Position numbers and translations under genes: made by a program. Below are positions 16,637 to 53,966 of a DNA stretch of 64,000 nucleotides, one piece after another (within the stretch, counting starts at the first letter, position 1; each line of letters begins with the position of its first letter). This DNA is from an uncultured Chloroflexia bacterium. GTDB taxonomy: Bacteria > Chloroflexota > Anaerolineae > JAAYZQ01. Location: positions 928,001-992,000 of the forward strand of contig CAVOXA010000001.1 in the NCBI GenBank assembly GCA_963700285.1, in the 5' to 3' direction. The notes beneath the pieces are model-generated. The model was given only the letters and a program-made list of their open reading frames with translations. It had not been told where the DNA came from and searched no databases.

Positions 16637-16665
16637 TTGACAAACTACAGCGATCGTAGTACAAT
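16637..16665 (+). promoter_or_regulatory. Sigma70 promoter of the MFS pair (start of the island)
   Basis: TTGACA-17 bp-TACAAT. Confidence 0.8.
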
Positions 16666-16668
16666 AGA

Positions 16669-16688
16669 AATGAAATACGTATTTCATT
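16669..16688. promoter_or_regulatory. Operator copy 1 (probable IclR-family site)
   Basis: Perfect 20-bp palindrome AATGAAATACGTATTTCATT overlapping the predicted +1. Confidence 0.75.
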
Positions 16689-16718
16689 AAGCAAAACACC
16701 TTATGCTCTTGCCGTGGA

Positions 16719-16729
16719 AGGTCTGACCA
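16719..16729. promoter_or_regulatory. Candidate FadR-subfamily GntR operator
   Basis: AGGTCTGACCA, 10/11 identical to TGGTCTGACCA upstream of the GntR gene. Confidence 0.5.
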
Positions 16730-16907
16730 TCTGATCATTTCCCTCCATCGGGCCTCAAGAGATCGGGATAGACGCTCGCAGGGCGCAGGTAGAGATGTTT
16801 CCGTGACCGGCATTCTGGCTAGCCTGAGACTTGATCGCGCAGTAGATAACCACTAGGTGGCGATGGCTGCAAGCATCGAGGATGGCGCTTGCGAAAGAGG
16901 GCCCAAG

Positions 16908-18141
16908 ATGAGACTCAGCCTGACAGACAGGGCATCCGGCGCCGCAAGAGAGAATCAAGGGATACTCAGCTATGGGCTGTTCGTCATGGCCCTGACGCAC
17001 ATGCTCACAGACGTATTTACCCGCATCCACACGACGCTATTCCCCGTTCTTCAGACCGAATTCAGCCTGTCCCTCCAACAATTGGGCCTCATCGCTGCCA
17101 TTCCTGCTCTCTGCCAGGCACTCTTCTCTATCCCCACAGGTCTGCTGGCCGATAGGTTGGGTTCCAGGCTGATGATCATCATCGCGCTTGTGGTCGCCAC
17201 CAGTGGTACCCTTCTTGGCCAGCCAGGCTCTCACCCCCGTCATGTTGATCGTCGCCGTTAGCCTCGTATACATCAATACCACCGTGTACCACCCTGCGGC
17301 CTATAGCTTTGTCACCAGGCTCTTTGAACCCAGGACCAGGGTCAAGGCGTTGGGCATCCATGGTGCAGGCGGGTCTTTGGGGGTGGCGCTTGGCCCCATT
17401 TCCATCACCATCTTGATGGGGGTTTTTGCCTTCGGTTGGCGGCAGGTGTACCTCTTTTGGAGCCTGCCCCTCCTCCTGGGTATCGTCGCCGTGCTGTTCC
17501 TCCGATCCGCGCCAGGAGATGACGTGGGGGTGAGCCCAGCTGCTGTCGTTGATGACGGGCGTAGGCCGGGAATCTCCTCGCTGCTTACCCATAGCATGAT
17601 CATGTTCCTGGTCTATGTCGCCGTGCAGTCGATGGCCAACTCGATGAGCCAGTCGTTCATGGCCCTGTACCTCGTTGATAACAGGGGGTTCTCCGGACCT
17701 GCGACCAGTACGCTCATTGGGCTCCATACATTGATGGGAATCGCTGGCGCTGTGTGGGGCGGCTTTCTCGCCGTCCGGTATGGAGAGAAAAGATGGCTAC
17801 TCACCATCCTGTCACTGTCCTACGTCTGCTATGGTCTGGCCATCCTTATCCCCAGCAACACCGCTTTTGTAGTTCTGTACCTGAGCTATGGCTTCTTGAC
17901 CTTCTTGGGCATGGCGGCCACTGCGGCCATTCTGGCCAAGCTATCACCGGGCCGACAGCGGGGGCTGGCCTTCGCCCTGTTCTTCCTGCCGGTCAGTATC
18001 ATGGGTGCCGTGGCGCCCCTCGCGGCGGCATCCATTGGCAACGCCTTGGGGTTGGTCTCTATCTTTTACGCAGCTACATTCTTTTTCTTCCTGAGCCTGG
18101 GTGTGCTGAAGTTTGGCGTCAGACTGAGGCCGTCAGACTGA
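16908..18141 (+). CDS. MFS transporter, paralog 1 (frameshift at ~17215)
   Basis: GLLADRLGSR motif A; collinear with paralog 2. An extra T in CTTCTTGGCC, versus CTTCTGGCC in the paralog, explains the split ORFs. Confidence 0.88.
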
Positions 18142-18175: not shown

Positions 18176-19399
18176 ATGAAGCTCGACGTGGCAGACAGGA
18201 CAGTAGGCACTGTGAAGACGAATCGGTCGATATTCAACTATGGCCTGTACGTCATGACCTTCACGAACATGCTCACCAATGTGTTTGCCTACGTGCATAC
18301 GACCCTATTCCCTGTCCTTCAGGACGAGTTCAGCCTGTCCCTCCAACAGTTGGGCCTCATCGCTGCTATCCCCGCCCTCTGCCAGGCACTCCTGTCTATC
18401 CCAGCGGGGTTGCTGTCCGATCGGTTGGGTTCCAGGCTGATGATCGTGTTCGCACTCGCGGTCGCCACCGGCGGCGCCCTTCTGGCCAGCCAAGTTCTCA
18501 GCCCGGTCATGTTGATTGTCGCCGTCAGTCTCATCTACGTCAACACAACCGTGTACCGCCCCGCCTCTTATAGCTTTGTTACGAGGCTCTTTGAACCCAG
18601 GACCAGGCTCAAGGCATTGGGCATCTTTGGCGCCGGTGGGACCTTGGGCATGGCGCTTGGTCCGATTTCCATCACCATCTTGATGGGGGTCTTTGCTGTC
18701 GGTTGGCGGCAGGTGTACCTCTACTGGTGTCTGCCCCTCCTACTGGGCATTGTCTCTGTGCTGTTCCTGCGCTCGGCGCCAAAGGATGATGTGGTGGTGG
18801 GATCCGCTGCGGGTGGGTATGGGGCAGCAGCCACCACACTGCTCACCTCCAACATGCTCCTGTTCCTGGTCTACCGGGCTATGCGGCTGATGGCGTACTC
18901 GATGAGCCGGACCTTCATGGCTCTGTATCTGGTCGACAGCAGGGGATTTTCCGAATCTGCGACCAGTACTTTGATTGGGCTCAGTACCCTGGTGGGCATC
19001 GCCGGGGCTGTGTTGGGCGGCTTTTTTGCCGTCCGGTACGGAGAGAAGCGGTGGCTTTTCAGCACGCTGTCGCTGGCCTACGTGTGCTTCAGCCTGGCTA
19101 TTCTCGTCCCCAACAAGACGGCCTTTGCCCTCTTTTATCTGGGCTACGGCTTGCTGAGAACTTTGGGCATGGCGGCCAATGCGGCCATCATGGCCCAGCT
19201 GTCACCGGGCAAACAGCGGGGCATGGCCTATGCCCTGTTCTTCCTGCCGGGCAGCATCATGGGCGCCGTGGCGCCCAACATCGCAGCATCCATTGGGGAT
19301 GCTTTTGGGCTGGTAGCCGTCTTTTACGCGACCATCGTCCTGTCCTTCCTGACCCTGGGTGTGCTACAATTCGGTGTCAGGCTCCAGCCATCCGCCTGA
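18176..19399 (+). CDS. MFS transporter, paralog 2
   Basis: GLLSDRLGSR motif A; ~12 hydrophobic segments; 407 aa. Confidence 0.92.
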   Translation: MKLDVADRTVGTVKTNRSIFNYGLYVMTFTNMLTNVFAYVHTTLFPVLQDEFSLSLQQLGLIAAIPALCQALLSIPAGLLSDRLGSRLMIVFALAVATGGALLASQVLSPVMLIVAVSLIYVNTTVYRPASYSFVTRLFEPRTRLKALGIFGAGGTLGMALGPISITILMGVFAVGWRQVYLYWCLPLLLGIVSVLFLRSAPKDDVVVGSAAGGYGAAATTLLTSNMLLFLVYRAMRLMAYSMSRTFMALYLVDSRGFSESATSTLIGLSTLVGIAGAVLGGFFAVRYGEKRWLFSTLSLAYVCFSLAILVPNKTAFALFYLGYGLLRTLGMAANAAIMAQLSPGKQRGMAYALFFLPGSIMGAVAPNIAASIGDAFGLVAVFYATIVLSFLTLGVLQFGVRLQPSA

Positions 19400-19553: not shown

Positions 19554-19582
19554 TTGACAAGTTCAAGCAAATGTGGTATAGT
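19554..19582 (+). promoter_or_regulatory. Sigma70 promoter of the IclR gene
   Basis: TTGACA-17 bp-TATAGT with an extended TG. Confidence 0.8.
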
Positions 19583-19585
19583 GGA

Positions 19586-19605
19586 AATGAAACAGTTGTT
19601 TCATT
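19586..19605. promoter_or_regulatory. Operator copy 2 (probable IclR autoregulatory site)
   Basis: AATGAAACAGTTGTTTCATT: 9-bp inverted arms, at the same offset from the -10 box as copy 1. Confidence 0.75.
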
Positions 19606-19629: not shown

Positions 19630-20406
19630 ATGTCAAAGCAGGACTATCGAATAGCCGCGGTGGATAAAACGCTCGACATTCTCGAGTTCCTAGCACAGCA
19701 GCGAAAAAAGATGGCGCTGCCAGAACTCAGCGTGGCCTTGGGCATGCCCAAGGCCACGCTGTTTCGTTATATGGTCACCCTCGAGGGCCGGGGCTACGTC
19801 CGAAAAGGCCCCGATGATGACAACTATGCCCTGGGCTTCAAGGTGCTGGAACTTGGCAGCAATATTCTCGCGAATCTGACCCTGCACGAACTCGCCTTGC
19901 CTTACATGAAAGAGCTCCAGACAGAGTTCCACGAGACGGTGAACCTGGGCGTTCTGGATGGGTGTGAGATCGTCTACATCGAGATCCTCGAGAGCCGCAG
20001 AACCTTCAAGATGTCCTCCCGTGTCGGTGGACGGGATATGCCCCACGCCACTTCCCTGGGCAAAGCCATGCTGGCTTTCCTGCCCGAAGAGGAGGTGGAG
20101 AGAATCGCCCTGGCCTGCAACCTGCCAAAGCGTACTGCCAAGACGATCACTTCCCTATCTCAGCTCAAGCACGAGTTGGAGACAATACGGCAGCGTGGCT
20201 TTGCCATAGACGATGGAGAGAACGAGGAAGGGGCCCGCTGCATCGGCGCCCCCATCTTTGAGCGCCGGGGCAACGTGGTCGCCGCGCTTAGCATAGCTGG
20301 TCCCGCCTTCCGTTCACCCGCTACGGGGATCGACGACATGGGAACCGCGCTGATGGCTGCCGCACTGCAGATCTCGCGGGAAATGGGCTATGAGCGTGAG
20401 CCTTGA
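19630..20406 (+). CDS. IclR family transcriptional regulator
   Basis: AVDKTLDILE, HTH MPKATLFRY, ETVNLG, HATSLGKA, GFAIDDGE, IGAPIF. Confidence 0.95.
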   Translation: MSKQDYRIAAVDKTLDILEFLAQQRKKMALPELSVALGMPKATLFRYMVTLEGRGYVRKGPDDDNYALGFKVLELGSNILANLTLHELALPYMKELQTEFHETVNLGVLDGCEIVYIEILESRRTFKMSSRVGGRDMPHATSLGKAMLAFLPEEEVERIALACNLPKRTAKTITSLSQLKHELETIRQRGFAIDDGENEEGARCIGAPIFERRGNVVAALSIAGPAFRSPATGIDDMGTALMAAALQISREMGYEREP

Positions 20407-20451
20407 GCCTTTGGCCCTTTGCACGCCAAATCTCTTTTTTTGTGTTGGGAA

Positions 20452-20462
20452 TGGTCTGACCA
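20452..20462. promoter_or_regulatory. Candidate FadR-subfamily operator upstream of the GntR gene
   Basis: TGGTCTGACCA matches the TGGTCnGACCA pattern typical of FadR-subfamily sites. Confidence 0.6.
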
Positions 20463-20511
20463 ATTGACCATTTCTGCCCCTGGGGCGCCAGGAGACCGGG
20501 AGGGAAATAGA

Positions 20512-21279
20512 ATGGCTGACAGAACTCCGGTAGACTTTGGTATGTTCGAGAGAAGCGCCCTCGCCGAGCAGATCTGTGCCAGGGTTCTTTCGCTCATAGA
20601 AGAGGGGCATCTACGCCCCGGGGACAAGCTGCCCCCCGAGCGGGAGTTGGCCGCAACCATGCAGGTCAGCCGTCCTTCCCTGCGTGAGGCCCTGCGCGCG
20701 CTGTCGGTAATCAACGTCGTCGAGATGCGCCAGGGGGATGGTACCTACGTGACCTCCCTGGAGCCCTCCCTGCTGGTAGAGCACCTGGATTTTGTGTTTT
20801 CGTTGGACGATTCGACTTTTCTTCAATTGCTGGAAGCGCGAAAGGCCCTGGAGCCGGGCATTGCCGCGGCGGCTGCCCGGCGGATTTCTGATAACGAGAT
20901 TGCTGAGCTGGAGGCCTGCCTGGAACGGACCCTGGCCAGTATGGAGGAACCGGTAGCCTTTTTGCAAGCAGACGTGGAGTTGCATTCCAGGATCGCCGCT
21001 GCGGCGCAGAACCCGATCCTGAGCAGGTTCATGGCTACCCTCAGCAGGCTTGGCGAAGCCAGCCGGCAGCGGACGGTAGAGATAGCCGGTATCCGCCAAC
21101 AAACGGTCGCCGATCACCAGGCTGTTGTCTCGGCGCTCAAGGCGCGCGATCCTGCCGGCGCGCACTTGGCCATGTTGCAGCACCTGGACCACGTTCAGCA
21201 GCAGCTCGCAGTAGTATCTGCGGGAACAGATAGGCAACCTGGCCTGATCGGCGAGCGGAGCGGCAACGACAGCGGATAG
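20512..21279 (+). CDS. GntR/FadR family transcriptional regulator (FCD domain)
   Basis: PGDKLPPERELA, VSRPSLREAL, QGDGTYV, ADVELH, NP, DH. ATG at 20512 follows GAGGGA. Confidence 0.93.
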   Translation: MADRTPVDFGMFERSALAEQICARVLSLIEEGHLRPGDKLPPERELAATMQVSRPSLREALRALSVINVVEMRQGDGTYVTSLEPSLLVEHLDFVFSLDDSTFLQLLEARKALEPGIAAAAARRISDNEIAELEACLERTLASMEEPVAFLQADVELHSRIAAAAQNPILSRFMATLSRLGEASRQRTVEIAGIRQQTVADHQAVVSALKARDPAGAHLAMLQHLDHVQQQLAVVSAGTDRQPGLIGERSGNDSG

Positions 21280-21483
21280 GAGCCGCTGACGGGCGATGGG
21301 ATTGAATGAGGGAGACTGGCTTGAAGGGTTTCCAGGTTTGGGGAAGGGGGTGAGGCTAGCGCAAGTGAGACAGGATGTGGATGGGGGGGAGAAGTGCAAG
21401 GCTACGCAGATCCCAGGCCCAAACGTGGACCCCAGGTCATGTAGCCTAATTGAGAGTCAGTCTTATGAAAGGAGCACAAAGAA

Positions 21484-23223
21484 ATGCGAAGGAAGATAGG
21501 GATTCTGTTGTTGCTCGTTGCCATGGTTGCCAGTTCTCTGCTCATGGCCTGTGGTGCCGCGGAGCCAGAAGTTGTCGAAGTGGAGAAGGAAGTGACCTCC
21601 ATCGTCAAAGAGATGGTCAAGGAAACCGTGATCGTCGAGGGTACGCCTCAGATTGTGGAGAAAGAGGTAACCAAGATTGTCGAGGGTACGCCCCAGGTTG
21701 TGGAGAAAGAGGTGACCAAGGTCGTCTTTGTCACCGCGGAGGCACCCTCAAGCGGCGAGCCCAAGCGCGGGGGGACGCTCTACATCGGCCAGGACTTTGG
21801 TCCCCAGCACTTTGACCCGCACAAGACCACGGCCTGGGCTTCGCAGAACATCTATGAGCACATCTACGAAGGCCTGATCCAGTGGAACGAAGACGAGACC
21901 GAGATCATGCCCAATCTGGCCGAAAGCTGGGAGATCTCGGACGACGGGCTGGTCTACACCTTCAAGATCCGCGAAGGGGTCAAGTTCCACAACGGTCGAG
22001 AAATGACCCCGGAGGACGTCAAGTTCTCCCTGGATCGCATACGCGACCCCGATTCGGGCAGCCTCCAGGCCTCCACGCTCGACCTGGTCGAATCGGTGGA
22101 GGTCACGGACGACGGAATGGTTCAGGTTACCCTGAGCGCGCCCTCGGCCACCTTTTTGATCTCTCTGAATGATGAGCTGGGGATCGTGCCCCCGGAGGCG
22201 GTCGATGAGTTGGAGACCAAGCCGGTCGGCACCGGCCCGTTCATGCTGGACGAGTATGTGCTGGATCAGTACGTCAGACTGGTGCGCAACCCCTTCTACT
22301 ACGAGGAGGGCCTGCCCTATCTCGACCGGGTGGAGTTCAAGATCCTGGGCGACGAGGCCTCGAAAGAGGCCGCCATGCGCTCCGGGAGCGTGGATATGAC
22401 CTGGTTCCGCGACCCCCGCCAGGCGACGGCCTTGGCCGAGAACGTGGAGGGCCTGATCTCTGCGCCCGGCATTCCCAGCCGCTACATTCCCATCCGATTC
22501 AGCCTCTGCGATGAGCCGTTTAACGACGTGCGAGTCCGGCGGGCATTCAGCCTGGCCATGGATCGGGAGCAACTGGTAGATGTGGTGATCCCCTCCAAGT
22601 ATGGCGGTGGTGTCAGCGGAGTCCTGGCGCCATCCAGCCCCTACTTCTGGCAGGGGGATCCCATGGACATGCCCTACTACAGGCGCGACGTTGAGAAGGC
22701 TAAAGAACTGCTGGCTGAGGCCGGGTACCCCGACGGGATCACCATCGACGAGTACAAGGTCGTGGCTGCCAACCAGCTTGATGTGGACGGCGCACAGGTG
22801 TTGAAGGAGCAGTGGGCCGAGGCGGGCATCGATGTCAACATCGTGCCCATGGAAGTGGGCCAGATCCTCGATGACTTTACCAAGGGGAACGGCAACATGA
22901 TCCAGGTTGGGTATGTGTGGTCTCCTGACCCTGACCTACGGCTCTATCAATACTTCCACCCCTCCGCCGATCCGGCCAAGGCCTACTGTATCGACGATCC
23001 GATACTGGGTGATCTGCTCGACCGGGGCCGCACATCGGTCGAGCCCGCGGAGCGCCAGGAGATCTACCAGGAAGTCCAAAGGCACATCGCGGACGAGGCG
23101 TACTGGCTCGTCAACTATGGCTACCCGCTGCGCTGGGAGATGTGGCAGGACTATGTAAAGGGCTACCAGAACCGTCCTTCCAACAGCCGCTGGGCGCTGC
23201 GGACGACCTGGTTGGACAAATAG
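21484..23223 (+). CDS. ABC transporter family-5 (DppA/OppA-like) solute-binding lipoprotein
   Basis: Lipobox LMAC, GGTL, PNLAESWEIS, VKFHNG, VGTGPF, VRRA, AKELLAEAG. Confidence 0.93.
   Translation: MRRKIGILLLLVAMVASSLLMACGAAEPEVVEVEKEVTSIVKEMVKETVIVEGTPQIVEKEVTKIVEGTPQVVEKEVTKVVFVTAEAPSSGEPKRGGTLYIGQDFGPQHFDPHKTTAWASQNIYEHIYEGLIQWNEDETEIMPNLAESWEISDDGLVYTFKIREGVKFHNGREMTPEDVKFSLDRIRDPDSGSLQASTLDLVESVEVTDDGMVQVTLSAPSATFLISLNDELGIVPPEAVDELETKPVGTGPFMLDEYVLDQYVRLVRNPFYYEEGLPYLDRVEFKILGDEASKEAAMRSGSVDMTWFRDPRQATALAENVEGLISAPGIPSRYIPIRFSLCDEPFNDVRVRRAFSLAMDREQLVDVVIPSKYGGGVSGVLAPSSPYFWQGDPMDMPYYRRDVEKAKELLAEAGYPDGITIDEYKVVAANQLDVDGAQVLKEQWAEAGIDVNIVPMEVGQILDDFTKGNGNMIQVGYVWSPDPDLRLYQYFHPSADPAKAYCIDDPILGDLLDRGRTSVEPAERQEIYQEVQRHIADEAYWLVNYGYPLRWEMWQDYVKGYQNRPSNSRWALRTTWLDK
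21631..21720 (+). repeat. Tandem 45-bp coding repeat in the SBP stalk
   Basis: IVEGTPQIVEKEVTK / IVEGTPQVVEKEVTK, two near-identical copies. Confidence 0.85.
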
Positions 23224-23241
23224 GACAGGGAGCATAACCTC

Positions 23242-23275
23242 GGCCGGCGGGCCGAGATCCAACAGCCCGCCGGCC
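23242..23275 (+). other. Intercistronic stem-loop after the SBP gene (probable mRNA stabiliser or attenuator)
   Basis: 11-bp stem GGCCGGCGGGC / GCCCGCCGGCC with no strong U-tract. Confidence 0.65.
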
Positions 23276-23295
23276 TTGCACTTGAAGGAGATCAC

Positions 23296-24249
23296 TTGAG
23301 CCAATACATCCTTCGCCGGCTGTTCCTGCTAGTGCCTGTGATTATTGGGATTACTCTACTCAGTTTCATCGTGATCAAGATACTGCCCGGCGACTTGGCC
23401 GTGGCCATGATGGGGCAAGAGGCCCTAGACCGGATGTCTCCCGAGCTGTTGGCCCAGATCCGGGCCGACCTGGGCCTGGACCGTCCCCTCCACATACAGT
23501 ACCTTTCTTGGCTCTGGGATGTGCTACGGGGGGATTTGGGTACGTCTCTCGTCCTCAAGATCGAGGTTCTGCCCGAGATCCTCCGCCGTGTGGCCGTGAC
23601 GGGGGAGTTGGCGATCCTTTCCGTGGCCTTTGGGCTAATCTTTGGAGCGCCCATCGGCATCCTGGCCGCAACGCAAGGAGGGGTCTGGGATTGGGTCAGT
23701 CGTTTCCTGACCTCGGTGGGCGTTGCCATACCCAGCTTTTTCGTTGCCACACTGCTGCTGCTCTTCGTGGCGCCTGTGACGCCCTGGATCCCGGTCTTTA
23801 CCTATGTACCCTTCCGAGAAGATCCCATAACCAACCTGCTGATCATGATCTTCCCGGTGATCGCCCTGGGCAGCGGCATGGCCATGGTCATCGCCGAGAA
23901 CACGCGCTCCGCCGTGCTGGATGTGCTGGCCCAGGACTATGTCATCGTCGCCCGGGCAAAGGGGCTCCAGGAAAAGGCCGTCATCTGGGGGCACGTGCTC
24001 AAGAACGCCTCCATCCCCATCATCTCCGTCCTGGGCCTGCAGACCAGTTTTCTCTTTAGCGGGACGATCATCATCGAGACAATCTTTAGCCTGCCGGGCA
24101 TGGGCAAACTGGTGATCAACGGCATCTACCTGCGCGACTATGTTGTCGTCCAGGGTGTGCTGCTGTTCACAGCCGTCGCAGTCGTGCTGATCAATCTGAT
24201 CACCGATATCCTCTATGCCTACGTCGATCCTCGCATCCGGTACGACTAG
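23296..24249 (+). CDS. Peptide ABC transporter permease (DppB-like)
   Basis: YILRRL, GLDRPL, GDLGTS, ARAKGL, IETIFSLPGMG, DPRI. Confidence 0.93.
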   Translation: MSQYILRRLFLLVPVIIGITLLSFIVIKILPGDLAVAMMGQEALDRMSPELLAQIRADLGLDRPLHIQYLSWLWDVLRGDLGTSLVLKIEVLPEILRRVAVTGELAILSVAFGLIFGAPIGILAATQGGVWDWVSRFLTSVGVAIPSFFVATLLLLFVAPVTPWIPVFTYVPFREDPITNLLIMIFPVIALGSGMAMVIAENTRSAVLDVLAQDYVIVARAKGLQEKAVIWGHVLKNASIPIISVLGLQTSFLFSGTIIIETIFSLPGMGKLVINGIYLRDYVVVQGVLLFTAVAVVLINLITDILYAYVDPRIRYD

Positions 24250-24269
24250 GAGAACCGAAGGGGTCAAGC

Positions 24270-25172
24270 ATGACGAACGTGTCCTCGTTGCGCAGTACAA
24301 ACTCACTTGAGGAACAGGATGCAAAAGCCGGGCGATCCGCCTATCACATGCGGTCCATTCGAGCCCTGTTCCGGAACAAGATGCTGATGGTCGGCGCGAC
24401 CATGGTCAGCGTGCTGTTCTTGCTGGCCATCCTGGCCCCTGTGGTGGCGCCCTACAGCCCCTATGCGATTGGGGTTGGGGAATCGATGGCCGGTCCCTCC
24501 GCAGAGCACATCATGGGCACCGACAAGCTGGGACGAGATCTCTTTTCTCGCATCATCTATGGCTCCCGCACCACGCTGCTGGTGGCCATCCCGTCCATCG
24601 CCCTGGCACTGGTCCTCGGGCTGGCCCTGGGTCTGACCTCCGGCTATCTGGGCGGGAGAACGGACCAGTTCATCATGCGCATCCTGGACATCTTTATGGC
24701 TTTTCCCGGGCTGCTGCTAGCCATTGCCATCGTGGCCATACTTGGCCCTAGCATCCGTAACCTGCTGATCACCATCGGCCTGCTCTACACCCCCAGCCTG
24801 GCGCGTGTCGTGCGCGCGCCCGTTCTTTCGGTCAAAGAGCAAGAGTTCGTGGAGGCGGCCCGGCTCTGCGGGGCCAAAAGCGAGCGCATTGTGCGGCGGC
24901 ACATCTTTCCCAACGTCACTTCGCCCGTCATTGTCCTCGTTACGCTGGCCGTTGCCCAGGCCATTCTGACGGAAGCCGCCCTGTCCTACTTGGGCCTGGG
25001 CGCGCCGCCGCCCAGTCCGAGCTGGGGCGAGATGCTCAGCACAAGCCGCTGGTTCCTGACCTCGGCGCCCTGGTACGCCATCTTTCCGGGCTTGGCCATT
25101 GTCTTTGCCGCATCGGCTTTCATCATCATGGGCAACGGGCTGCGCGACTGGATCGATCCGCGACGGCGGTAG
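24270..25172 (+). CDS. Peptide ABC transporter permease (DppC-like)
   Basis: GTDKLGRD, FVEAARLCGA, EAALSYLGLG, PSWG, GLRDWIDP. Confidence 0.93.
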   Translation: MTNVSSLRSTNSLEEQDAKAGRSAYHMRSIRALFRNKMLMVGATMVSVLFLLAILAPVVAPYSPYAIGVGESMAGPSAEHIMGTDKLGRDLFSRIIYGSRTTLLVAIPSIALALVLGLALGLTSGYLGGRTDQFIMRILDIFMAFPGLLLAIAIVAILGPSIRNLLITIGLLYTPSLARVVRAPVLSVKEQEFVEAARLCGAKSERIVRRHIFPNVTSPVIVLVTLAVAQAILTEAALSYLGLGAPPPSPSWGEMLSTSRWFLTSAPWYAIFPGLAIVFAASAFIIMGNGLRDWIDPRRR

Positions 25173-46583: not shown

Positions 46584-46673
46584 GTTGTGAAAACTGGCGC
46601 CATGGTGGGCCCTGCGCATCATGCGCGCTGACCCGGCTGAGGCTCGGGAAATGAGGATTGGCGGGAAGGATTT

Positions 46674-47909
46674 GTGACCGTGTCTAGACTGCGAACCAGC
46701 ATGTGGCTCTATCCCTGGGATGTGCAAGATGAGGGCATCGACTTTGTGCTGGGGAGTATTCAGGACCGCGCTGGCATCGGTGGCGTCAACCTGGCGGTGA
46801 GCTATCATTCTGGCATGTTCCTTCTGCCCCACAATCCCCGGCGCAAGGTCTACTACCCCCAGCCAGGTGTCTACTTTCAGCCGGACGCTGCGCGCTTTGC
46901 GGGCCTGGCCATGCAACCCATCGTTAACGATCTTGCCAGTACAGACCTGGTGGCGCGCCTGCGATGCGAGACGGCGCAGCGGGGTATGGCCCTCACTGCC
47001 TGGACAGTCTGCCTGCACAATACCGCTCTGGGCATTGCCTACCCCGAGAGCACCATGAAAAATGTCTTCGGCGATCGGCTTATTAGCCAGCTCTGTCCGG
47101 CAAATCCACACGCGCGAGCTTATGCCCTGGCCTTGTTGGGGGATCTGCTCAACCGCGAGCTGGAATCGGTGCTGGTCGAATCCCTGGAGTACATGTCGTT
47201 CCAACATGGCTATCATCACGAAGTGATCGGGGTGCCACTTACGCCCTTTATCTCCTGGCTGCTCGGGCTTTGCTTCTGTGAGCACTGCCAGCGAGGGGCG
47301 GAGGAATCTGGAGTTGATGTCAAAGCGGTGCTGGCCTTTGTCCGCCGGGAGATCGAATGGTTTTTCGCCGGGGGCTTGGAAGCTGGCCGCGAAGGGATTA
47401 CTTGGCCGGAGATCAGGGCCCTCGCGGGTGAGGAGCTGGGGGCCTTCCACCAGTTTCGCATCAGCACGGTGACCAGCCTCTACGGGGAGGTCCACGCCGC
47501 TAGGGCGCCTGGCGCCCGCACCTTGCTGGAAGTCTGTGACTTTGGCCCACTCTGGGGCCTGGGACCGGATGGTGCGGCCTGGGAGAGTGGCTTTGACATG
47601 GCAGCCACGGCCCGCTTTTTCAGTGGTCTGCATCCTTGTCCCTACTTTGTCGCGGTGGATCAGGTGAGAGACAAGATGGACGAGTACCGGTGCCTGGTAC
47701 CCAGGGGCATGCCGGTCTATCCTGCCATCCGGGCCATCCCTCCCCAGGTGGCAACCGCTGCGGATCTACAAGCCAAGATGGATGCCTGCCAGCCGCGGTC
47801 AGTAGCTGGGTTCAGCTTCTACAACTATGGCTTTGTGCGCTATAATGCGCTGGATTGGATCAAGGCAGCCCTGGCTGCACTGGAGGGCTTGACCGAACTC
47901 AAGATGTAG
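46674..47909 (+). CDS. Hypothetical protein, probable glycoside-hydrolase-like TIM barrel
   Basis: Intact 411-aa ORF in the operon; YPWD, SYH, PHNP, LCP, HGYHHE, CFCEHC, FYNYG. Confidence 0.55.
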   Translation: MTVSRLRTSMWLYPWDVQDEGIDFVLGSIQDRAGIGGVNLAVSYHSGMFLLPHNPRRKVYYPQPGVYFQPDAARFAGLAMQPIVNDLASTDLVARLRCETAQRGMALTAWTVCLHNTALGIAYPESTMKNVFGDRLISQLCPANPHARAYALALLGDLLNRELESVLVESLEYMSFQHGYHHEVIGVPLTPFISWLLGLCFCEHCQRGAEESGVDVKAVLAFVRREIEWFFAGGLEAGREGITWPEIRALAGEELGAFHQFRISTVTSLYGEVHAARAPGARTLLEVCDFGPLWGLGPDGAAWESGFDMAATARFFSGLHPCPYFVAVDQVRDKMDEYRCLVPRGMPVYPAIRAIPPQVATAADLQAKMDACQPRSVAGFSFYNYGFVRYNALDWIKAALAALEGLTELKM

Positions 47910-47958
47910 CCGGATGGTTGGCAGAGCCAACCACTACGAACCAGAAGGAGTCAAGAGT

Positions 47959-49977
47959 GTGAGAATCGAAGAGTATGGTTTTGACAGACCCCGCAGTGGG
48001 CTGGCTGTCACAGCTGATGAGGCAGCCAGCCTGGCCAGCCAGATCGGGTTCCCTGTCGCCCTAAAGATCATTTCGCCCGACATCCTGCACAAGACAGATA
48101 TGGGCGGGGTCGAGCTGGCGCTGGATTCTGAAGAGGCGGTGCGCGCTGCCTTTGGGCGCATCACAGCCCGTGCCAGCGAAGAGGCGCCAGAGGCTCAGAT
48201 CGAGGGTGTCGGCGTTGAGGAGATGATCCAGGAGGGTGTGGAGATCATTGTCGGGCTCATCAACGACCCCCAGTTCGGACCCACTATCATGTTCGGCCTG
48301 GGCGGGATCTTGACCGAGATCCTGGACGACGTCAGTTTTCGCGTCTTGCCCATCACGCCGGACGACGCGCGCAGTATGGTCAACGAGATCCAGGGCAAGC
48401 CCCTGCTTGACGGCTACCGGGGACAGGCGCCCGTGTCGGAGGACCTGCTGGTCGATTTGCTGATGAAGGCCAGCCGGATGGGGATGGATCTGGCTGGCAG
48501 GTTGGACTCTGTGGACCTGAACCCAATCGTCGTCTGGGGCGACCAGCACCGGGTTCTGGACGCCAAGGTACTGCTGGACGCTGGGGAGCGCTCCTACGAG
48601 GCCGCCAAGGCGAACACGGCCAATCTCGCGGCCTTTTTTCAGGCCAAGGCAGTCGCACTGGTCGGTGCCTCGTCCACGCCGGGCAAGATCGGCAACTCGG
48701 TACTGGACAGCCTGAGCCAACATGCGTACGAGGGCAATGTCTATCCTGTCAATCCGGTCCGAGACGAGATCATGGGCCTGCAGACCTATCCCAATCTGGC
48801 AGCGACGCCGGAGGATACCGAGTTGGTGGTGGCCGTCGTGGATCTTTTCCAGGTCCCGGTCCTGATCGAAGAGACCGCGGCCAAGGGCGTGCACAGCCTG
48901 GTGGTCGTCTCTGGCGGCGGAAAGGAACTGGGCGGTGAGCGGCAGGAGCTGGAAGCGCGTATCAAGGAACTCGCCACTCAGCTCGGCGTGCGGATCATCG
49001 GCCCAAATTGCATCGGTGTCTTTGACGGCGCGTCCCGGCTGGATACCTTCTTCCAGGTGCATGAGCGCATGGTCCGCCCCCCCAGCGGCAAGGTGGCCAT
49101 GACTACCCAGTCGGGAACGGTGGGCGCCGCCTTCCTGGAAGCGGCGACCTATGGCATGAGCAAGTTCGTCAGCTATGGCAACCGTGTCGATGTGGACGAG
49201 GCGGACCTGCTGGCCTACTTGGCCGACGACCCCAATACGGCCGTGATCGCCTGCTACGTCGAGGGCCTGGAACGGGGGCGCAAGTTCCTGGAGACGGCGC
49301 GCCAGGTAACGAAAAAGAAACCGGTGGTAATCTATAAGGCGGGGCGCAGCCAGCGGGGCGCTAGGGCTTCCATGTCTCACACCGGCTTTTTCGGCGGCAG
49401 CTACAAGGTCTGCCAGGGGGCCTTCCGGCAGGCAGGATTGATCGATGTAGATAGCCTGGAAGAGCTACAGGCCGCGGCCCAGGCCCTGGCCCTGCAGCCT
49501 GAGGCGCGGGGCCCGAGGCTGGCCATGATCTCCAACGGCGCGGGGACCATGGTCCAGGCTATGGACCTCATGAACGCGTACGGCCTGACAATGCACGATC
49601 TCGAGCCAGAGACGGTTGAGCGCCTGGAGGCGGTCTACCCCGGCTACTATATCGTGCAAAACCCGGTGGACGTCACCGGCTCGGCGACCAGCCAGGACTA
49701 CCGGCTGGGCATCGAAGCCCTCATCGAGGATCCCAACGTCGACGTCATCATGCCCTGGTTCGTCTTTCAGGACACGCCGCTGGATGAGGGGATCGTGGAA
49801 GCACTGGTGGAGCTGTCGGGCGCGAAACCAATCCTATGCGGAGCGATGGGAGGTCCCTATACGGTGAAAATGGGCCGGGAACTGGAGGCCCAGGGAGTGC
49901 CACTGGTGTATGGAGTGCGACCCTGGCTGGCTGCGGCCCGGGCAGTATCGTATCGAGCAAGCACACTAAACTTATAG
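47959..49977 (+). CDS. ADP-forming acyl-CoA ligase, single chain with ATP-grasp (beta) domain first and CoA-binding (alpha) domain second
   Basis: N-terminal GFPVALKI, HKTDMGGV, DLNP; C-terminal VGAS, GPNCIG, QSG, SHTG (phospho-His), NPVD. GTG at 47959 follows AAGGAG. Confidence 0.9.
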   Translation: MRIEEYGFDRPRSGLAVTADEAASLASQIGFPVALKIISPDILHKTDMGGVELALDSEEAVRAAFGRITARASEEAPEAQIEGVGVEEMIQEGVEIIVGLINDPQFGPTIMFGLGGILTEILDDVSFRVLPITPDDARSMVNEIQGKPLLDGYRGQAPVSEDLLVDLLMKASRMGMDLAGRLDSVDLNPIVVWGDQHRVLDAKVLLDAGERSYEAAKANTANLAAFFQAKAVALVGASSTPGKIGNSVLDSLSQHAYEGNVYPVNPVRDEIMGLQTYPNLAATPEDTELVVAVVDLFQVPVLIEETAAKGVHSLVVVSGGGKELGGERQELEARIKELATQLGVRIIGPNCIGVFDGASRLDTFFQVHERMVRPPSGKVAMTTQSGTVGAAFLEAATYGMSKFVSYGNRVDVDEADLLAYLADDPNTAVIACYVEGLERGRKFLETARQVTKKKPVVIYKAGRSQRGARASMSHTGFFGGSYKVCQGAFRQAGLIDVDSLEELQAAAQALALQPEARGPRLAMISNGAGTMVQAMDLMNAYGLTMHDLEPETVERLEAVYPGYYIVQNPVDVTGSATSQDYRLGIEALIEDPNVDVIMPWFVFQDTPLDEGIVEALVELSGAKPILCGAMGGPYTVKMGRELEAQGVPLVYGVRPWLAAARAVSYRASTLNL

Positions 49978-49990
49978 AGAGGAGACTATC

Positions 49991-51208
49991 ATGACCCAAC
50001 CATGGAAGACCGACAAGTGGTACGTAAGCCCCTGGAACTTTTTTGATGAGGTGACCGCAGGGTTCGATTTCGCGCCACAGATCAAGATCCACGACATGAC
50101 CCTGCGCGATGGCGAGCAGCAGGCCGGCCTGGAGCTGCGCAAGGACGACAAGGTCCGCATCGCCGAGGCTCTGGCCGAGGCAGGCGTCCACCGCATCGAG
50201 GCTGGCATGCCAGCCGTCTCGAAACAGGATGAGGACGCCATCCGTGAGATCGTCAAGCGCGACCTGGGGCCCGAGATCTTTGCCTTCTGCCGCTGCGTGG
50301 TGGACGATGTGAAGCTAGCAGCGGACTGTGGCGTCAGTGGCATCGTCATCGAGATCCCGGCTTCCGAACACATCATTCAGAACGCCTACCAGTGGCCCGT
50401 GGAGAAAGCTATCGATCTATCGATCAAGGCCACCAGCGTGGCCAAAGAGCTGGGATTGTACACGGCCTTCTTTACCATCGACGCCACACGCGCCGACATC
50501 AATTGGCTCCTGGACCTTCTGGAAAGGGTAGCCACCGAGGGCCACATGGATTCGCTGGTGCTGGTGGACACCATGGGTGGAGCCCATCCAGGTGCCATCC
50601 GCTACTTTGCCGGCAAAGTCAAGGAGCGCTTCTCGCAACCCCTTGAAGCACACTTTCACAACGACTTTGGACTGGCCGTGGCCAACACGCTGGAGGCACT
50701 GGCGGCCGGCGTTGAGGTAGCCCACGTCACGGTGGGTGGCATGAGCGAGCGCGCAGGAGCCGCGGCCTTGGAAGAGGTTGTTGTCGCGCTGCTGGCCATG
50801 TACGGCATCGACGTAGGGATGAAGTATGACAAGTTGTATGACCTGACCCAACTGGCGACGTCGCTGACGGGACACGTCCTGGCACCCAACAAGGCCATCG
50901 TGGGCGAGGACCTCTTTACCATCGAGTCTGGCATCCCCGCAGCCTGGACGCGGCGCTGTCAAGGTGATCTGATCACTGAGGTCTTTCCCCTACACTGGGA
51001 CCTGATGGGCCACCCGGGCCCGAACATTGTCCTGGGCAAAGGCTCCGGTGCGCCATCCGTGGAAATCTGGCTGGAAGAGATGGGCCAGGAGGCCAGCCCA
51101 GCGCAAGTAGAGGCCTTGACGGTCATGGTCAAGGAGAAATCACTGGAGAAAAAGGGCCTGGTCACCAAGGATGAATTCAGGGCCATGACCGATGAGGTCC
51201 TTACCTGA
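49991..51208 (+). CDS. DRE-TIM metallolyase (LeuA / homocitrate synthase-like, no regulatory domain)
   Basis: DMTLRDGEQ, IEAG, DTMG, HFHNDFG, ERAG, NKAIVG. Confidence 0.85.
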   Translation: MTQPWKTDKWYVSPWNFFDEVTAGFDFAPQIKIHDMTLRDGEQQAGLELRKDDKVRIAEALAEAGVHRIEAGMPAVSKQDEDAIREIVKRDLGPEIFAFCRCVVDDVKLAADCGVSGIVIEIPASEHIIQNAYQWPVEKAIDLSIKATSVAKELGLYTAFFTIDATRADINWLLDLLERVATEGHMDSLVLVDTMGGAHPGAIRYFAGKVKERFSQPLEAHFHNDFGLAVANTLEALAAGVEVAHVTVGGMSERAGAAALEEVVVALLAMYGIDVGMKYDKLYDLTQLATSLTGHVLAPNKAIVGEDLFTIESGIPAAWTRRCQGDLITEVFPLHWDLMGHPGPNIVLGKGSGAPSVEIWLEEMGQEASPAQVEALTVMVKEKSLEKKGLVTKDEFRAMTDEVLT

Positions 51209-51370
51209 TCCCGGTCTTGCCGCAACGTGAGCAGATCACTCCTTGTGAAAGTGGCAAGTCTGCGCCTTGCTTGAACCTTCGCAAGGATGATTCTATTGGA
51301 GTGATATCGCTTGCCTTGGGAATCAACCTGTGGTATACAGGGGGCAACCCAGTCGGAAATGGAAGACGAC

Positions 51371-52584
51371 ATGACGACAGACACGCGCGGACCTGATGTA
51401 GGTCTGCAGAGGATATCGGAAGACCAGTACCTGCCCTGCACCCGCTGTGGTTTGTGCTCCCATGCCTGCCCAAGCTACCGCGCCTACCGCACCCAGACCT
51501 ACTCGGCACGTGGCCGAGTGGCTCTGCTTCGCGCTGTTAGTCAGGGAGACATGGAAGTCGGCGAGACCTATGGAGACAGGTTCTACACCTGTACCCTGTG
51601 CGCCGCCTGTGACCAGGTCTGTCCCAGCGGGGTGAAGGTGGAAGAGCTTTTGCTCGCCGGCCGGGAAGAGATCGCCCTCCGTGACCAGCTACCGCCGAAC
51701 CTGACGAACCTCAGCCAGGCCATCCACGAGAGCCACAATATCCTGGGCGAGGACAATGTCGCGCGCCAGCTCTGGGCGGAGAACATGGAGCGTCCGCCTT
51801 CGGGCAGTGCCAAAGAGATCGCCGAGGTAGCCTTTTTCGTGGGTTGTGTGAGTTCGCTCTTTCCGCGTAGCTATGCGGTCCCACAAACATTCGTCCAGAT
51901 CCTCGATACTGCCCAGGTGGACTATACCTTGCTGGGGGGGAAGAGTGGTGTTGCGGCTACCCGCTGATGGTCAATGGCCTGCTACCGGAAGCAGGGGATA
52001 TGATCCGCCACAACATCGCCGCGGTACATGCCAGGGGCGTCCGGATGGTCGTGTTTACCTGCCCGTCTTGCTACCACGTTTGGAAGCATGTCTACCCCGA
52101 CATCGCTGGGGCAGAAATGGGCGACCTGGAACTGCTGCACGCCACCGAGTACCTGGCCCGGCTCCTTGACGATCCACCTGCCTCGGGAGCCACTGCCGGG
52201 GATGGACAGAGGCTGCCTCTGCATGAGCTGGACCTGAGGGTGGCCTATCACGACCCCTGCGATCTGGGGCGCAAGAGCGGCGTTTACGAGGCGCCCCGCC
52301 GCGTCCTGCGCAGCATTCCGGGCGTGACGCTGGTAGAAATGGTCGACAACCGGGAGAATGCGCTGTGCTGCGGAGGTGGGGGAAACGTCGAGACCTATGA
52401 CCCTGACTTGGTTGCCGCAATCTCCAGCCGGCGTCTGGCCCAAGCCCAGCAGGCCGGCGCCCAGGCCATTGTGTCAGCCTGCCAGCAGTGCGAGCGGACC
52501 CTGGCCGCTGCGGCCCGCCGGGATCGCGTGCGGCTGCGGGTCATGGATATCGCCGAGATCGTCTGGAAGGCAGTGGAGAAATGA
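51371..52584 (+). CDS. Fe-S / CCG-domain oxidoreductase subunit (GlcF/HdrD-like; frameshift in the G-run at ~51935-51945)
   Basis: CTRCGLC...CP, CTLCAAC...CP, FVGC, CPSC, YHDPC, CCGGGG, ACQQC. Confidence 0.85.
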
Positions 52585-53966
52585 TTGAGGACAAAACGAT
52601 CGAAAGACTCTGCAATCTGGTGGGCGCGGAAAACGTACATTCCGCCGGTGAGGATCTGCATTGCCATGCTTTCGATGGCACGATTGCGCACCATGAGCCT
52701 GACCTTGTCGTGACACCCAGAAGCACAGAGGATGCCAGCCAGGTGCTCCGTGTCGCCTCCGAACAAGGCATCCCTGTCGTGCCGCAGGGGATGGCCAGCG
52801 GTCTGGCTGGCGGTTGCGTGCCCACTTCAGGGGGCATCGCCCTCAGCCTGACGCGCATGGACCGTATCCTGGAGATCGACCGTGCGAACATGACGGCCAC
52901 GGCCGAGGCGGGCCTGATCACGGCCGTGTTGCAAGAAGAGGTGGAGGCGCTGGGGCTCTTTTACCCGCCTGATCCTGGTAGTCTCAAACACTCTACGCTG
53001 GGCGGCAACGTGGCCTGCAACGCTGGCGGACCCCGCTGTCTGAAATACGGGGTGACCGGTGACTATGTCATGGGCCTGACCGTCGTACTGGCCGATGGTC
53101 GCGTATTGCGGACGGGGGGCAAGGCCATCAAAAACGTCACCGGCTACAACTTGACTCAGCTCTTCGTGGGCTCCGAGGGTACTCTGGGGGTTATTACCGA
53201 GGTTCTGATTGGGCTAATCCCCAAGCCAACCTACGTGCAGACTCTCCTTGGTATCTTTCCCCGGCTGGACGACGCCAGCCGCGCGGTCAACAGCGTGTTG
53301 GCCGCTGGCGTGGTCCCGGCCACCCTGGAGCTTATGGACGAGACGGCCATCGCTTGCATTGAGGAGTTCATGCACCTGGGCTTGCCTCTGGACAAGGAAG
53401 CGATCCTGATCTTGGAGGCAGATGGGAATGACGAGGCGGCCGTATTGCGCGAGATCAAGACAATCGCCGACCTGTGCCGCGAGAGCGGCGCCTCTGAGGT
53501 CCAGATGGCACAAAGCGAGGCGGAGCGGCAGGACCTGTGGCAAGCCCGGCGCAGCCTGCTTCCCTCCTTGGCGCGCCGCGCACCGAATCAGCTACTGGAG
53601 GACGTGACCGTACCGAGGAGCGAGATTCCAGCTATGGTACGGCGCGTCAAGGAGATCAGCCGCCGGTACGATCTGCCCCTCGTCGTGTTTGGTCACGCCG
53701 GCGATGGCAACCTGCATCCCACCATCCTGTTTGATAATCGGGACGAAACACGGTGGCCCCTGGTCGAACGCGCGGCCCATGACACCTTCCTTGCCGCGCT
53801 AGAGCTTGGCGGTACGCTCTCCGGCGAACACGGGATCGGGATGCTCAAACGGGACTATATGGAGCGCGCCCTGGGGTCGGTGTCCATCGAGGTACATCGC
53901 AACCTCAAGCACGCCCTGGATCCCCAGGGCATCCTGAATCCGGGGAAGGTATTCCCGCCCAACTAG
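52581..53966 (+). CDS. FAD-linked 2-hydroxyacid dehydrogenase subunit (GlcD-like)
   Basis: YPPDPGS, GGNVACNAGG, KYGVT, GSEGTLG, GHAGDGNLH, GEHGIG, LNPGK; ATGA overlap with the Fe-S subunit gene. Confidence 0.9.
   Translation: MIEDKTIERLCNLVGAENVHSAGEDLHCHAFDGTIAHHEPDLVVTPRSTEDASQVLRVASEQGIPVVPQGMASGLAGGCVPTSGGIALSLTRMDRILEIDRANMTATAEAGLITAVLQEEVEALGLFYPPDPGSLKHSTLGGNVACNAGGPRCLKYGVTGDYVMGLTVVLADGRVLRTGGKAIKNVTGYNLTQLFVGSEGTLGVITEVLIGLIPKPTYVQTLLGIFPRLDDASRAVNSVLAAGVVPATLELMDETAIACIEEFMHLGLPLDKEAILILEADGNDEAAVLREIKTIADLCRESGASEVQMAQSEAERQDLWQARRSLLPSLARRAPNQLLEDVTVPRSEIPAMVRRVKEISRRYDLPLVVFGHAGDGNLHPTILFDNRDETRWPLVERAAHDTFLAALELGGTLSGEHGIGMLKRDYMERALGSVSIEVHRNLKHALDPQGILNPGKVFPPN

Follow-up and report, generated by a model that had tools for sequence, protein, structure and literature searches.

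A predicted composite catabolic supercluster in the genome of an uncultured Chloroflexia bacterium

A long array of catabolic genes was studied in a stretch of 64,000 nt from the genome of an uncultured Chloroflexia bacterium (contig CAVOXA010000001.1, positions 928,001 to 992,000), referred to here as the window (G000:C1:928001-992000, G000 being the window genome). The assembly has a size of 7.05 Mb in 22 contigs and is 89% complete. The closest named relatives of the window's genes bear the label Chloroflexota/Anaerolineae. With a probability of about 0.55, the array is considered to be a composite catabolic supercluster in which five or more modules, each conserved by itself, follow one another on one strand, and which would act as a funnel and not as one fixed pathway. 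Two related genomes, a congener (G001) and a member of a sister genus (G011), carry different parts of it, and its terminal pair, a fused ADP-forming CoA ligase and a LeuA-like enzyme, recurs in other genomes among changing neighbours. This pair is the most interesting part of the locus.

Five modules are indicated by the comparison of these genomes. Module A includes two MFS transporters, an IclR regulator, a DgaE-like lyase, an M20 deacylase, a short-chain dehydrogenase/reductase (SDR) and a PRK09237 amidohydrolase, which is all that the congener retains, with one palindromic putative operator shared by the transporter promoter and the IclR promoter. Module B is formed by a GntR regulator, an Opp-type ABC importer without ATPase genes, two M81 peptidases and a HemL-like aminotransferase, and module C by a short SDR, an orphan permease and a Gfo/Idh/MocA oxidoreductase (Gfo). 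Module D contains a metallo-beta-lactamase (MBL)-fold hydrolase, a FadH-like reductase and a third M81 peptidase (M81c), together with two inserted blocks: one of a class-I aminotransferase, a LarA homologue and a nitrilase-family protein, the other of a class-V aminotransferase and a glycoside hydrolase (GH)-like protein. Module E comprises the CoA ligase, the LeuA-like enzyme and the GlcF- and GlcD-like proteins.

Gene content of the array and its versions in related genomes

The open reading frame listing, Pfam and NCBIfam gave 29 genes in 31 open frames on the plus strand (Table 1), in good agreement with the original prediction of about 28 consecutive plus-strand genes, whose start at 16637 coincides with a promoter-like site. 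The families found were two MFS transporters, IclR and GntR/FCD regulators, SBP_bac_5, OppB and OppC, three M81 proteins (DUF1485 and MlrC_C), a class-III aminotransferase, a SelA-like pyridoxal phosphate (PLP) enzyme of the DgaE family, a short SDR, a lone OppC/NikC-like permease, Gfo/Idh/MocA, M20, SDR, a PRK09237-type amidohydrolase, MBL, an OYE plus FAD/NAD reductase, a class-I aminotransferase, a LarA homologue, CN_hydrolase, a class-V aminotransferase, a protein without Pfam match, the fused ADP-forming CoA ligase, an HMGL-like protein, a Fer4 plus CCG protein (GlcF-like) and a GlcD-like protein. Curated NCBIfam cut-offs were passed by only four of them, the HemL-like aminotransferase (subfamily model), the short SDR, the orphan permease and the PRK09237 amidohydrolase; the remaining proteins were assigned at family level only. 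In a crude whole-genome gene call the same-strand run ranked second among 1770 runs, with 30 frames against a mean run of 3.0, so its co-orientation is exceptional for this genome.

Two genes of the array are broken by frameshifts. The gene of MFS transporter 1 is interrupted near 17190-17260 (pieces 16857-17261 and 17188-18141, both with the MFS_1 domain) and is unbroken in the congener, at 85-90% amino-acid identity. The GlcF-like gene is split into 51311-51967 and 51967-52584, with the break at a run of seven G (51934-51940), and its counterpart in the sister genus is a single frame of 395 aa. Since housekeeping genes of the flanks are split likewise, both breaks are probably assembly indels and not pseudogenes or gene decay. 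The split flank genes are those of aspartyl-tRNA synthetase (three pieces), ribonucleotide reductase (two), FtsA (two) and GH2 (two), at window positions 5311-7467, 57518-59824, 62106-63349 and 2964-5025, respectively. These data suggest that the assembly is prone to indels and that gene integrity across the genome needs care.

The same locus was found in the congener, with flanks common to the window at 84-96% amino-acid identity: three M42 peptidases, TgpA, YggS and Cu-oxidase_4 on the left side, and radical SAM, DUF218, ribonucleotide reductase and FtsA on the right side. Between them, the congener contains only two MFS genes, IclR, the SelA-like gene, M20, SDR, a second SDR and the amidohydrolase. 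A 189-nt piece of the GntR gene abuts there the 3' end of the class-III aminotransferase gene (window 20815-20999 joined to 29162), and because of this the junction is read from the sequence as the scar of an 8.2-kb deletion (window 21000-29161). The congener is also without window positions 31036-34178 and 37744-55036, the latter including the minus-strand MBL gene that follows the array.

In the sister genus, about 19 of the genes are present in a different order and at a different chromosomal site. A collinear run comprises SBP_bac_5, OppB, OppC2, M20, SDR, MBL, OYE, M81c, CoA ligase, LeuA-like, GlcF and GlcD genes (54-85% amino-acid identity); elsewhere in the same 46 kb are Gfo, a second GlcD/F-like set, a class-III aminotransferase with a SelA-like gene, IclR behind a sugar-type ABC system, M81 and the amidohydrolase. 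Within the 54 kb examined, the class-I aminotransferase/LarA/nitrilase block, the class-V aminotransferase/GH-like block, GntR and the MFS genes were not found, and extra genes for an aldehyde dehydrogenase, a FAD_binding_2 flavoprotein and sugar-type ABC systems stand among the shared ones. The M20 and SDR genes adjoin in both relatives. An orthologue of M81c (66%) was detected only in the sister genus among the 22 other genomes of the order, the congener having just paralogues of 33-35%.

The sister-genus site is bordered on one side by FtsK, SbcC and an integrase-like gene (L003:11073-12257; Phage_int_M, SAM_3), which lies about 5 kb past the end of this version, after the FtsK and SbcC-like genes. 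With respect to the window, no tRNA was found in it and no integrase or transposase family in its flanks, both of which the congener has too; these results do not support a mobile genomic island.

Two further sites of the window genome cluster genes of Opp-type ABC systems, M81, class-III aminotransferase, Gfo, amidohydrolase, LarA, GntR and MBL. These paralogous clusters, at G000:C14:903001-950000 and G000:C10:855001-870000 (L088-L092), also hold M81 pairs, several amidohydrolases and URO-D-like, transaldolase-like, sulfatase and TPP enzyme genes, and an aldehyde:ferredoxin oxidoreductase is encoded in the second one.

The CoA ligase and LeuA-like pair

The LeuA-like gene was surveyed by scanning one genome per species, and 80 loci from many phyla were obtained (44-85% identity), in 79 of which the gene was regained by tblastn over at least 60% of its length. 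The CoA ligase gene is directly upstream of it in 12 of the 80 loci, 11 labelled Chloroflexota and one Gemmatimonadota, and in the six cases checked (window, L008, L009, L012, L013 and L051) the two genes overlap by 4 nt at one extreme and are 52 nt apart at the other. In 8 of the 12 pair loci a GntR orthologue (50-68%) directly precedes the ligase gene; a unit of GntR, CoA ligase and LeuA-like genes alone occurs in eight Chloroflexota loci, and GlcD (at least 40% identity) is downstream of the pair in four.

Homologues of the class-III aminotransferase, Gfo, GH-like, M20, MBL, SDR, SelA-like, M81 and class-I aminotransferase genes were found within 10 kb of the pair in L008, L009 and L051. 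The order in L008 is GH-like, creatininase-family, class-III aminotransferase, Gfo, AMP-ligase, CoA ligase, LeuA-like, GlcD and GlcF; in L009, MalK-like ATPase, SDR, MBL, M20, SelA-like, M81, CoA ligase, LeuA-like, electron-transfer flavoprotein (ETF) and GlcD-like; and in L051, class-I and class-III aminotransferases, amino-acid ABC, CoA ligase, LeuA-like, GlcD and GlcF. In L012 a Mo-hydroxylase set comes after the triad of GntR, CoA ligase and LeuA-like genes. The neighbours of the LeuA-like gene in other phyla are D-2-hydroxyacid dehydrogenases, MFS genes, or a CitE-like lyase with SucCD-like genes; leu or lys genes are not among them. A second kind of CoA-ligase partnership was observed in a metagenome-assembled genome of Armatimonadota (L021:11181-14338), where genes for a CitE/HpcH-like lyase and a SucC/SucD-like thiokinase come after the LeuA-like gene.

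Since the neighbours vary across loci while the pair is kept, it behaves, as far as gene order indicates, as a lower module to which different upper pathways attach. The genes of the array do co-occur outside the window, because the theme recurs around the same pair in the genomes of L008, L009 and L051; the succession of amide and amine removal and then hydroxy- or oxo-acid and CoA chemistry, proposed in the original prediction, was thus encountered again in two phyla.

The LeuA-like protein of the window was aligned with 76 homologues from the survey loci. The metal and 2-oxoacid site of the DRE-TIM enzymes (LRDGEQ at residues 38-43 and the HxH motif H221/H223) is kept in 77 of 77 sequences. 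On the other hand, alignment to PDB 6e1j, 6ktq and 3rmj places Ile163, Pro316 and roughly Ile328 at the positions of Glu227, His388 and Tyr399 of methylthioalkylmalate synthase (MAMS), and none of the 77 members has Glu or His in those columns, that is, the residues of a Claisen synthase are lacking. The protein also remains under all curated cut-offs, among them those of TIGR02090 (299.4 vs 484.75) and TIGR02660 (272.1 vs 462.9). According to a study of MAMS, His388 is likely the general base, activity is lost in the H388A/D/E, E227A/D and Y399S mutants, and the arrangement is conserved in isopropylmalate synthase (IPMS) (PMC11532901). Because the residues that enolise acetyl-CoA are missing while the metal and 2-oxoacid site is kept, the LeuA-like enzyme is not a normal synthase and is probably a lyase.

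Compared with the LeuA-type Claisen synthases (IPMS, homocitrate synthase, citramalate synthase and MAMS; 6ktq, 3rmj, 6e1j), the protein has the same fold and length class and shares LRDGEQ, HxH and the DT.G threonine, with best PDB matches at E values from 1e-41 to 2e-32; it differs in the Glu227/His388/Tyr399 positions (Ile/Pro/Ile) and in its partner, a CoA ligase instead of leu or lys genes. A route in which glycolate is oxidised to glyoxylate, condensed with acetyl-CoA by a malate-synthase activity to D-malate and then passed to LarA was also considered and ruled out, the condensing residues being absent.

The CoA ligase has the same fused order of ATP-grasp, CoA-binding and ligase-CoA domains (ATP-grasp_5, CoA_binding_2 and Succ_CoA_lig in one chain) as the thaumarchaeal 3-hydroxypropionate-CoA ligase [ADP-forming] (PDB 9y43), to which it matches over its full length (E 4.4e-208, residues 12-678). 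It scored 861.4 bits against the cut-off of 1300 of NF045492, so that it does not fall within that equivalog, and it differs in its bacterial host and catabolic context.

Regulators, uptake systems and comparison with known systems

Both promoter-like sites of module A (16637 and 19554) matched 11 of 12 positions, and a palindrome stands directly behind each (Table 1). When up to one mismatch is allowed, this IclR-type palindrome has just two copies in the 7.05-Mb genome; both boxes are kept in the congener, one of them upstream of MFS transporter 1, and a related box with three mismatches follows the promoter of an operon of transporter (ABC) and IclR genes in the sister genus. A perfect 34-nt palindrome (19728-19761) was also observed within the coding part of the IclR helix-turn-helix (SVALGMPKATL), the same stretch having three changes in the congener.

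The GntR-type motif in the leader of MFS transporter 1 reads GGTCTGACCATCTGATCA. This box is degenerate in the congener, where GntR is lost. At the orthologous GntR loci, tandem related boxes stand behind promoter-like hexamers, with up to two mismatches to the palindrome in six of eight; in L018 and L022 the box is visible as half-sites only. The two conserved operators are putative, and on this basis they would tie the transporters to IclR and GntR. A look-alike box at C1:822557 was discarded, as it lies inside a coding frame.

A 10-mer scan over 21 intergenic gaps yielded only the two box types and the 11-nt palindrome CCTTCGCAAGG, which has two copies in the window, at 28500 just before the class-III aminotransferase gene and at 51276 just before the GlcF-like gene.

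The original prediction had described a peptide-type ABC importer. Its substrate-binding protein (SBP_bac_5) and its OppB and OppC permeases are present; its ATPase genes are not, and the second permease is alone. No ABC_tran or oligo_HPY gene was found among the Pfam matches of the array, and the set is therefore not a five-gene Opp/Dpp-type operon. All the oligo_HPY matches of the genome lie outside the array, and the sister-genus version is equally without ATPases. Genome tblastn matches amounted to 24 for SBP5, 23 for OppB, 27-29 for OppC, 8 for M81, 7 for LarA and 17 for the class-III aminotransferase, while oligo_HPY matches were about 18, several being fragments, against 23-29 permease matches; because of these proportions, Opp operons without ATPases are the rule in this genome.

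The orphan permease has neither a partner substrate-binding protein nor OppB. It looks like the leftover of a formerly complete second Opp system, given that its 80% orthologue in the sister genus follows SBP_bac_5 and OppB genes. Remnants of the sister-genus SBP5, OppB, aldehyde dehydrogenase and flavoprotein genes were not found in the gaps of the window, the sole matches being the intact paralogues at 21.7-24.3 kb.

The array was compared with other known systems. In the Salmonella dga locus, DgaE (D-glucosaminate-6-phosphate ammonia lyase) acts with phosphotransferase system (PTS) and aldolase partners. The SelA-like protein belongs to the DgaE family (TIGR01437; 7lc0), and the acid-sugar-type MFS and KdgR-like IclR proteins fit an amino-sugar-acid theme; however, its scores are under the cut-offs (235.3 vs 385.3 and 218.7 vs 600), and no PTS or KDPG-aldolase Pfam family is present in the array.

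With the mlr genes for microcystin degradation (MlrC, M81; PDB 7ylq), three proteins of the array share DUF1485 and MlrC_C, and M81c matches 7ylq with an E value of 5e-44. They differ in their scores (89.3, 97.6 and 158.9 bits against the NF041767 cut-off of 999), in the lack of anything like MlrA, MlrB or MlrD among the Pfam matches of the array, and in the presence of 8-9 M81 paralogues per genome.

The LarA homologue has the Lar_N domain of the LarA superfamily (malate racemase Mar2, 6d6z; LarA, 5huq), and the equivalents of Arg75, His108, His174, Lys184 and His200 are all identical in comparison with 6c1w and 5huq; the numbering is that of Lactiplantibacillus plantarum LarA and was verified by counting in the alignment. 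It could not be placed in a substrate subfamily (malate, lactate or LarAH10), its best score being 242.2 against a cut-off of 500, and it is missing from the sister-genus version. LarE and LarC were found in the genome. The sole full LarC gene (G000:C1:1833764-1834899) is read in pieces, with one internal TGA, despite the seven LarA-homologue matches, probably as an assembly error.

The E. coli glc locus comprises the GntR/FCD regulator GlcC, the glycolate oxidase GlcDEF and malate synthase G. A GntR/FCD regulator and GlcD- and GlcF-like proteins beside an acyl-CoA/2-oxoacid enzyme occur in the array too; the differences are a GlcD-like score under the cut-off of TIGR00387 (491.8 vs 567.9), the lack of GlcE, whose model matches only the GlcD-like gene itself, a partner enzyme without condensing residues, and a regulator 26.6 kb distant.

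No description of this cluster was found in the literature on DRE-TIM enzymes, on M81/MlrC with ABC transporters or on the gene context of LarA. The original prediction recognised no pathway in this combination, and neither the comparison nor the literature revealed one: the cluster maps onto no known pathway found, and is built wholly from known families in a familiar type of locus, the catabolic supercluster.

Table 1. Features of the catabolic array and its borders (window positions; scores in bits against the model cut-off).
Feature	Position	Strand	Remarks
Promoter-like TTGACA-17-TACAAT, then palindrome AATGAAA-N6-TTTCATT (16669-16688)	16637-16688	+	putative IclR operator
GntR-type box GGTCTGACCA-N-CTGATCA in leader of MFS transporter 1	16719-16737	+	matches box before GntR gene
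Catabolic array	16857-53966	+	29 genes in 31 open frames
MFS transporter 1	16857-18141	+	MFS_1
MFS transporter 2	18176-19399	+	weak resemblance to acid-sugar and aromatic-acid symporters
Promoter-like TTGACA-17-TATAGT and second IclR-type palindrome (19586-19605)	19554-19605	+	
IclR-family regulator	19630-20406	+	HTH_IclR and IclR_C; under every named equivalog cut-off
GntR/FCD regulator	20419-21279	+	orthologue (50-68% amino-acid identity) of regulators in 8 other Chloroflexota loci
Putative GntR operator TGGTCTGACCA-AT-TGACCA	20452-20469	+	about 60 nt before likely GntR start
Opp/Dpp-type ABC importer without ATPase genes	21484-25172	+	SBP_bac_5 21484-23223, OppB 23296-24249, OppC 24270-25172
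Two tandem M81 (MlrC-like) metallopeptidases	25280-26833, 26892-28448 (block 25280-28448)	+	8-9 paralogues in genome
Class-III (HemL/GSA-like) aminotransferase	28369-29844	+	NF000818 409.5 vs 398
SelA-like, DgaE-family PLP lyase	29918-31039	+	PDB 7lc0, E 7.8e-47
Short SDR, PRK07578 type, full length	31193-31816	+	NF005754 271.7 vs 167
Orphan OppC/NikC-like permease	32146-33114	+	Opp2C nickel-permease model 302.2 vs 300
Gfo/Idh/MocA oxidoreductase	33038-34162	+	profile matches
M20 ArgE/DapE-type deacylase and classical SDR	34195-35466, 35463-36233	+	4-nt overlap; M20/SDR/MBL in L009
PRK09237-family amidohydrolase/deacetylase	36535-37731	+	NF006689 414.7 vs 371; PDB 2ogj
MBL-fold hydrolase and OYE plus FAD/NAD FadH/BaiCD-like reductase	37728-38474, 38572-40479	+	neighbours in sister genus too
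Class-I aminotransferase, LarA homologue, CN_hydrolase	40512-41756, 41756-43039, 42934-43833	+	block missing from sister genus
Third M81 peptidase, M81c	43901-45391	+	PDB 7ylq matched full length
Class-V aminotransferase and GH-like TIM-barrel protein	45189-46583, 46674-47909	+	block missing from sister genus
Fused ADP-forming acyl-CoA ligase and LeuA-like DRE-TIM protein	47914-49977, 49991-51208	+	gap 13 nt
GlcF-like Fe-S/CCG protein and GlcD-like FAD oxidase	51311-52584, 52488-53966	+	Pfam, NCBIfam
Converging MBL-fold gene	54053-54907	-	past end of original prediction; in block absent from congener

The protein that the original prediction called a GH-like hypothetical belongs to a family of 1690 representative sequences. 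Its AlphaFold2 (AF2) model is a TIM barrel (pLDDT 94), and its fold is nearest to PgaB-C, Cwp19 and GH42/GH35 enzymes (TM about 0.55-0.65, 9-16% identity); Glu169 is invariant in the family and Cys141, Cys200, Cys202 and Cys205 nearly so, a cysteine cluster that we take to resemble the zinc site of GH42. The model thus makes the label of GH-like a fair one.

The SDR and amidohydrolase genes are separated by 301 nt, and here, where the congener has a second SDR copy, lies a 76-codon frame (36235-36462) without Pfam match. It ends in ...VVFVRTGGFPALFAYGHEL, presumably like the C-terminus of D-cysteine desulfhydrase/ACC deaminase, and may be a gene remnant. Upstream of the array, three tandem M42 glutamyl-aminopeptidase genes (8320-11466, minus strand) are kept in the congener and are followed by a 264-aa protein (7517-8311) with staphylococcal-nuclease and lamin-tail domains.

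Proposed route, alternative explanations and significance

As a composite funnel, the array would take up, by its MFS and Opp systems, organic acids that carry amide or amino groups and that may be peptide-like compounds or amino-sugar acids. These would be deacylated by the M81, M20, amidohydrolase, MBL and nitrilase-family proteins, deaminated by the four PLP enzymes, and subjected to redox and epimerisation steps by the SDR, Gfo, FadH-like reductase and LarA proteins. The hydroxy or oxo acids so formed would enter the terminal step, in which the ligase would activate an acid or harvest ATP from a CoA ester, the LeuA-derived lyase would cleave a C-C bond rather than form it, and GlcD/F would oxidise a 2-hydroxyacid product; the ligase may run in either of two directions, and the substrate-level phosphorylation put forward in the original prediction corresponds to just one of them. 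The GntR protein, encoded 26.6 kb upstream of module E, would be its ancestral regulator, and the box in the MFS leader would tie uptake to that module. An anaerobic setting is plausible, with LarA together with LarC and LarE, the ADP-forming ligase and the aldehyde:ferredoxin oxidoreductase of the paralogous cluster as hints.

More tentatively, the GntR-controlled pair could be the terminal module of an undescribed and widespread anaerobic route, in which many different nitrogenous substrates would yield a 2-oxo- or 3-hydroxy-acid, free or as the CoA ester, that is split at a C-C bond with coupling to CoA and ATP. The array would then be the largest known assembly of upper pathways on this module (M81, M20, MBL, amidohydrolase, DgaE-like, HemL-like, LarA and GH-like).

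Several points weigh against a composite supercluster with this terminal module. The borders of the modules rest on two close comparators, the congener and the sister genus; the role given to the missing LeuA residues is taken over from plant MAMS and bacterial IPMS, which are other subfamilies; and, beyond the four proteins above curated cut-offs, every catalytic assignment finer than the family scores under them. That GntR controls module E today is unproven, since none of its boxes was detected close to the CoA ligase gene of the window. A simple scan for terminators gave no signal over that of shuffled sequence, and the only internal promoter-like site detected after 19.6 kb is a weak one at 47818, so the array may be transcribed as one or two very long transcripts and hence be one functional unit; transcription units and co-regulation are predictions from sequence only.

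The last point leads to the first alternative, a single dedicated pathway in which all 29 genes act on one complex nitrogenous or amide-linked substrate, the congener and sister-genus loci being degraded or rearranged versions. It would account for the tight spacing almost throughout, the lack of terminator signal above background, the rank of the run, the deletion scars in the congener and the recurrence of many of the families near the pair in two phyla. Nevertheless, we hold it to be rather unlikely, as uptake is divided among three different systems and an orphan permease, two regulators have putative operators of their own, the triad occurs alone in eight loci and with a Mo-hydroxylase set in L012, the sister genus is without two blocks and carries other genes among the shared ones, and the M81c orthologue is limited to 1 of 22 other genomes of the order. 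The equation of one island with one pathway, made in the original prediction, is not supported by the 9-gene core of the congener and the changed order in the sister genus.

Accretion without functional link, that is, unrelated small catabolic operons piled up on the leading strand where a 7-Mb scavenger genome is rich in genes and prone to indels, is a less probable explanation still. The genome is certainly rich in such genes, as the counts of SBP5, M81, LarA and class-III aminotransferase matches indicate; three large indels separate the congeners at the locus, the orphan permease and the possible remnant in the SDR-amidohydrolase gap point to turnover, and GC skew is positive over the region. 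Against it, the same families come together again, in changed orders, in the sister genus and in L008, L009 and L051, a GntR-type box is present in the MFS operon leader of another module, and the run length has the second rank in the genome.

Finally, a role of module E in central metabolism, with the LeuA-like enzyme as a Re-citrate synthase or other Claisen synthase whose acetyl-CoA would come from an acetate-activating ligase, is very improbable: the LeuA-like subfamily is similarly spread over anaerobe phyla and malate synthase (PF01274) was not found in the 89%-complete genome, but the general-base His and its Glu/Tyr partners, with the roles given in PMC11532901, are absent in 77 of 77 sequences, a canonical citrate synthase gene and three ordinary LeuA-like genes in a separate cluster are present elsewhere in the genome, and the LeuA-like neighbourhoods are variable and catabolic. 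In favour of this role, Re-citrate synthases are relatives of homocitrate synthase and IPMS, often misannotated and present in Chloroflexota, Firmicutes and Thermodesulfobacteriota (PMC12016533).

The composite supercluster offers two predicted pairs of operator and regulator as handles on the diet of this bacterium. Anaerolineae are abundant, mostly uncultured degraders in sediments and digesters, and their diet is poorly known. To our knowledge, microcystinase C is the only characterised M81 peptidase; M81 genes are repeatedly associated with HemL-like aminotransferases and Opp systems without ATPases. The conserved triad joins GntR and an ADP-forming CoA ligase to a rewired LeuA-like enzyme that is routinely given the wrong name of isopropylmalate or homocitrate synthase. 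Elucidation of the terminal pair would put many annotations right, and a new lower pathway for nitrogenous organic acids could emerge from it.

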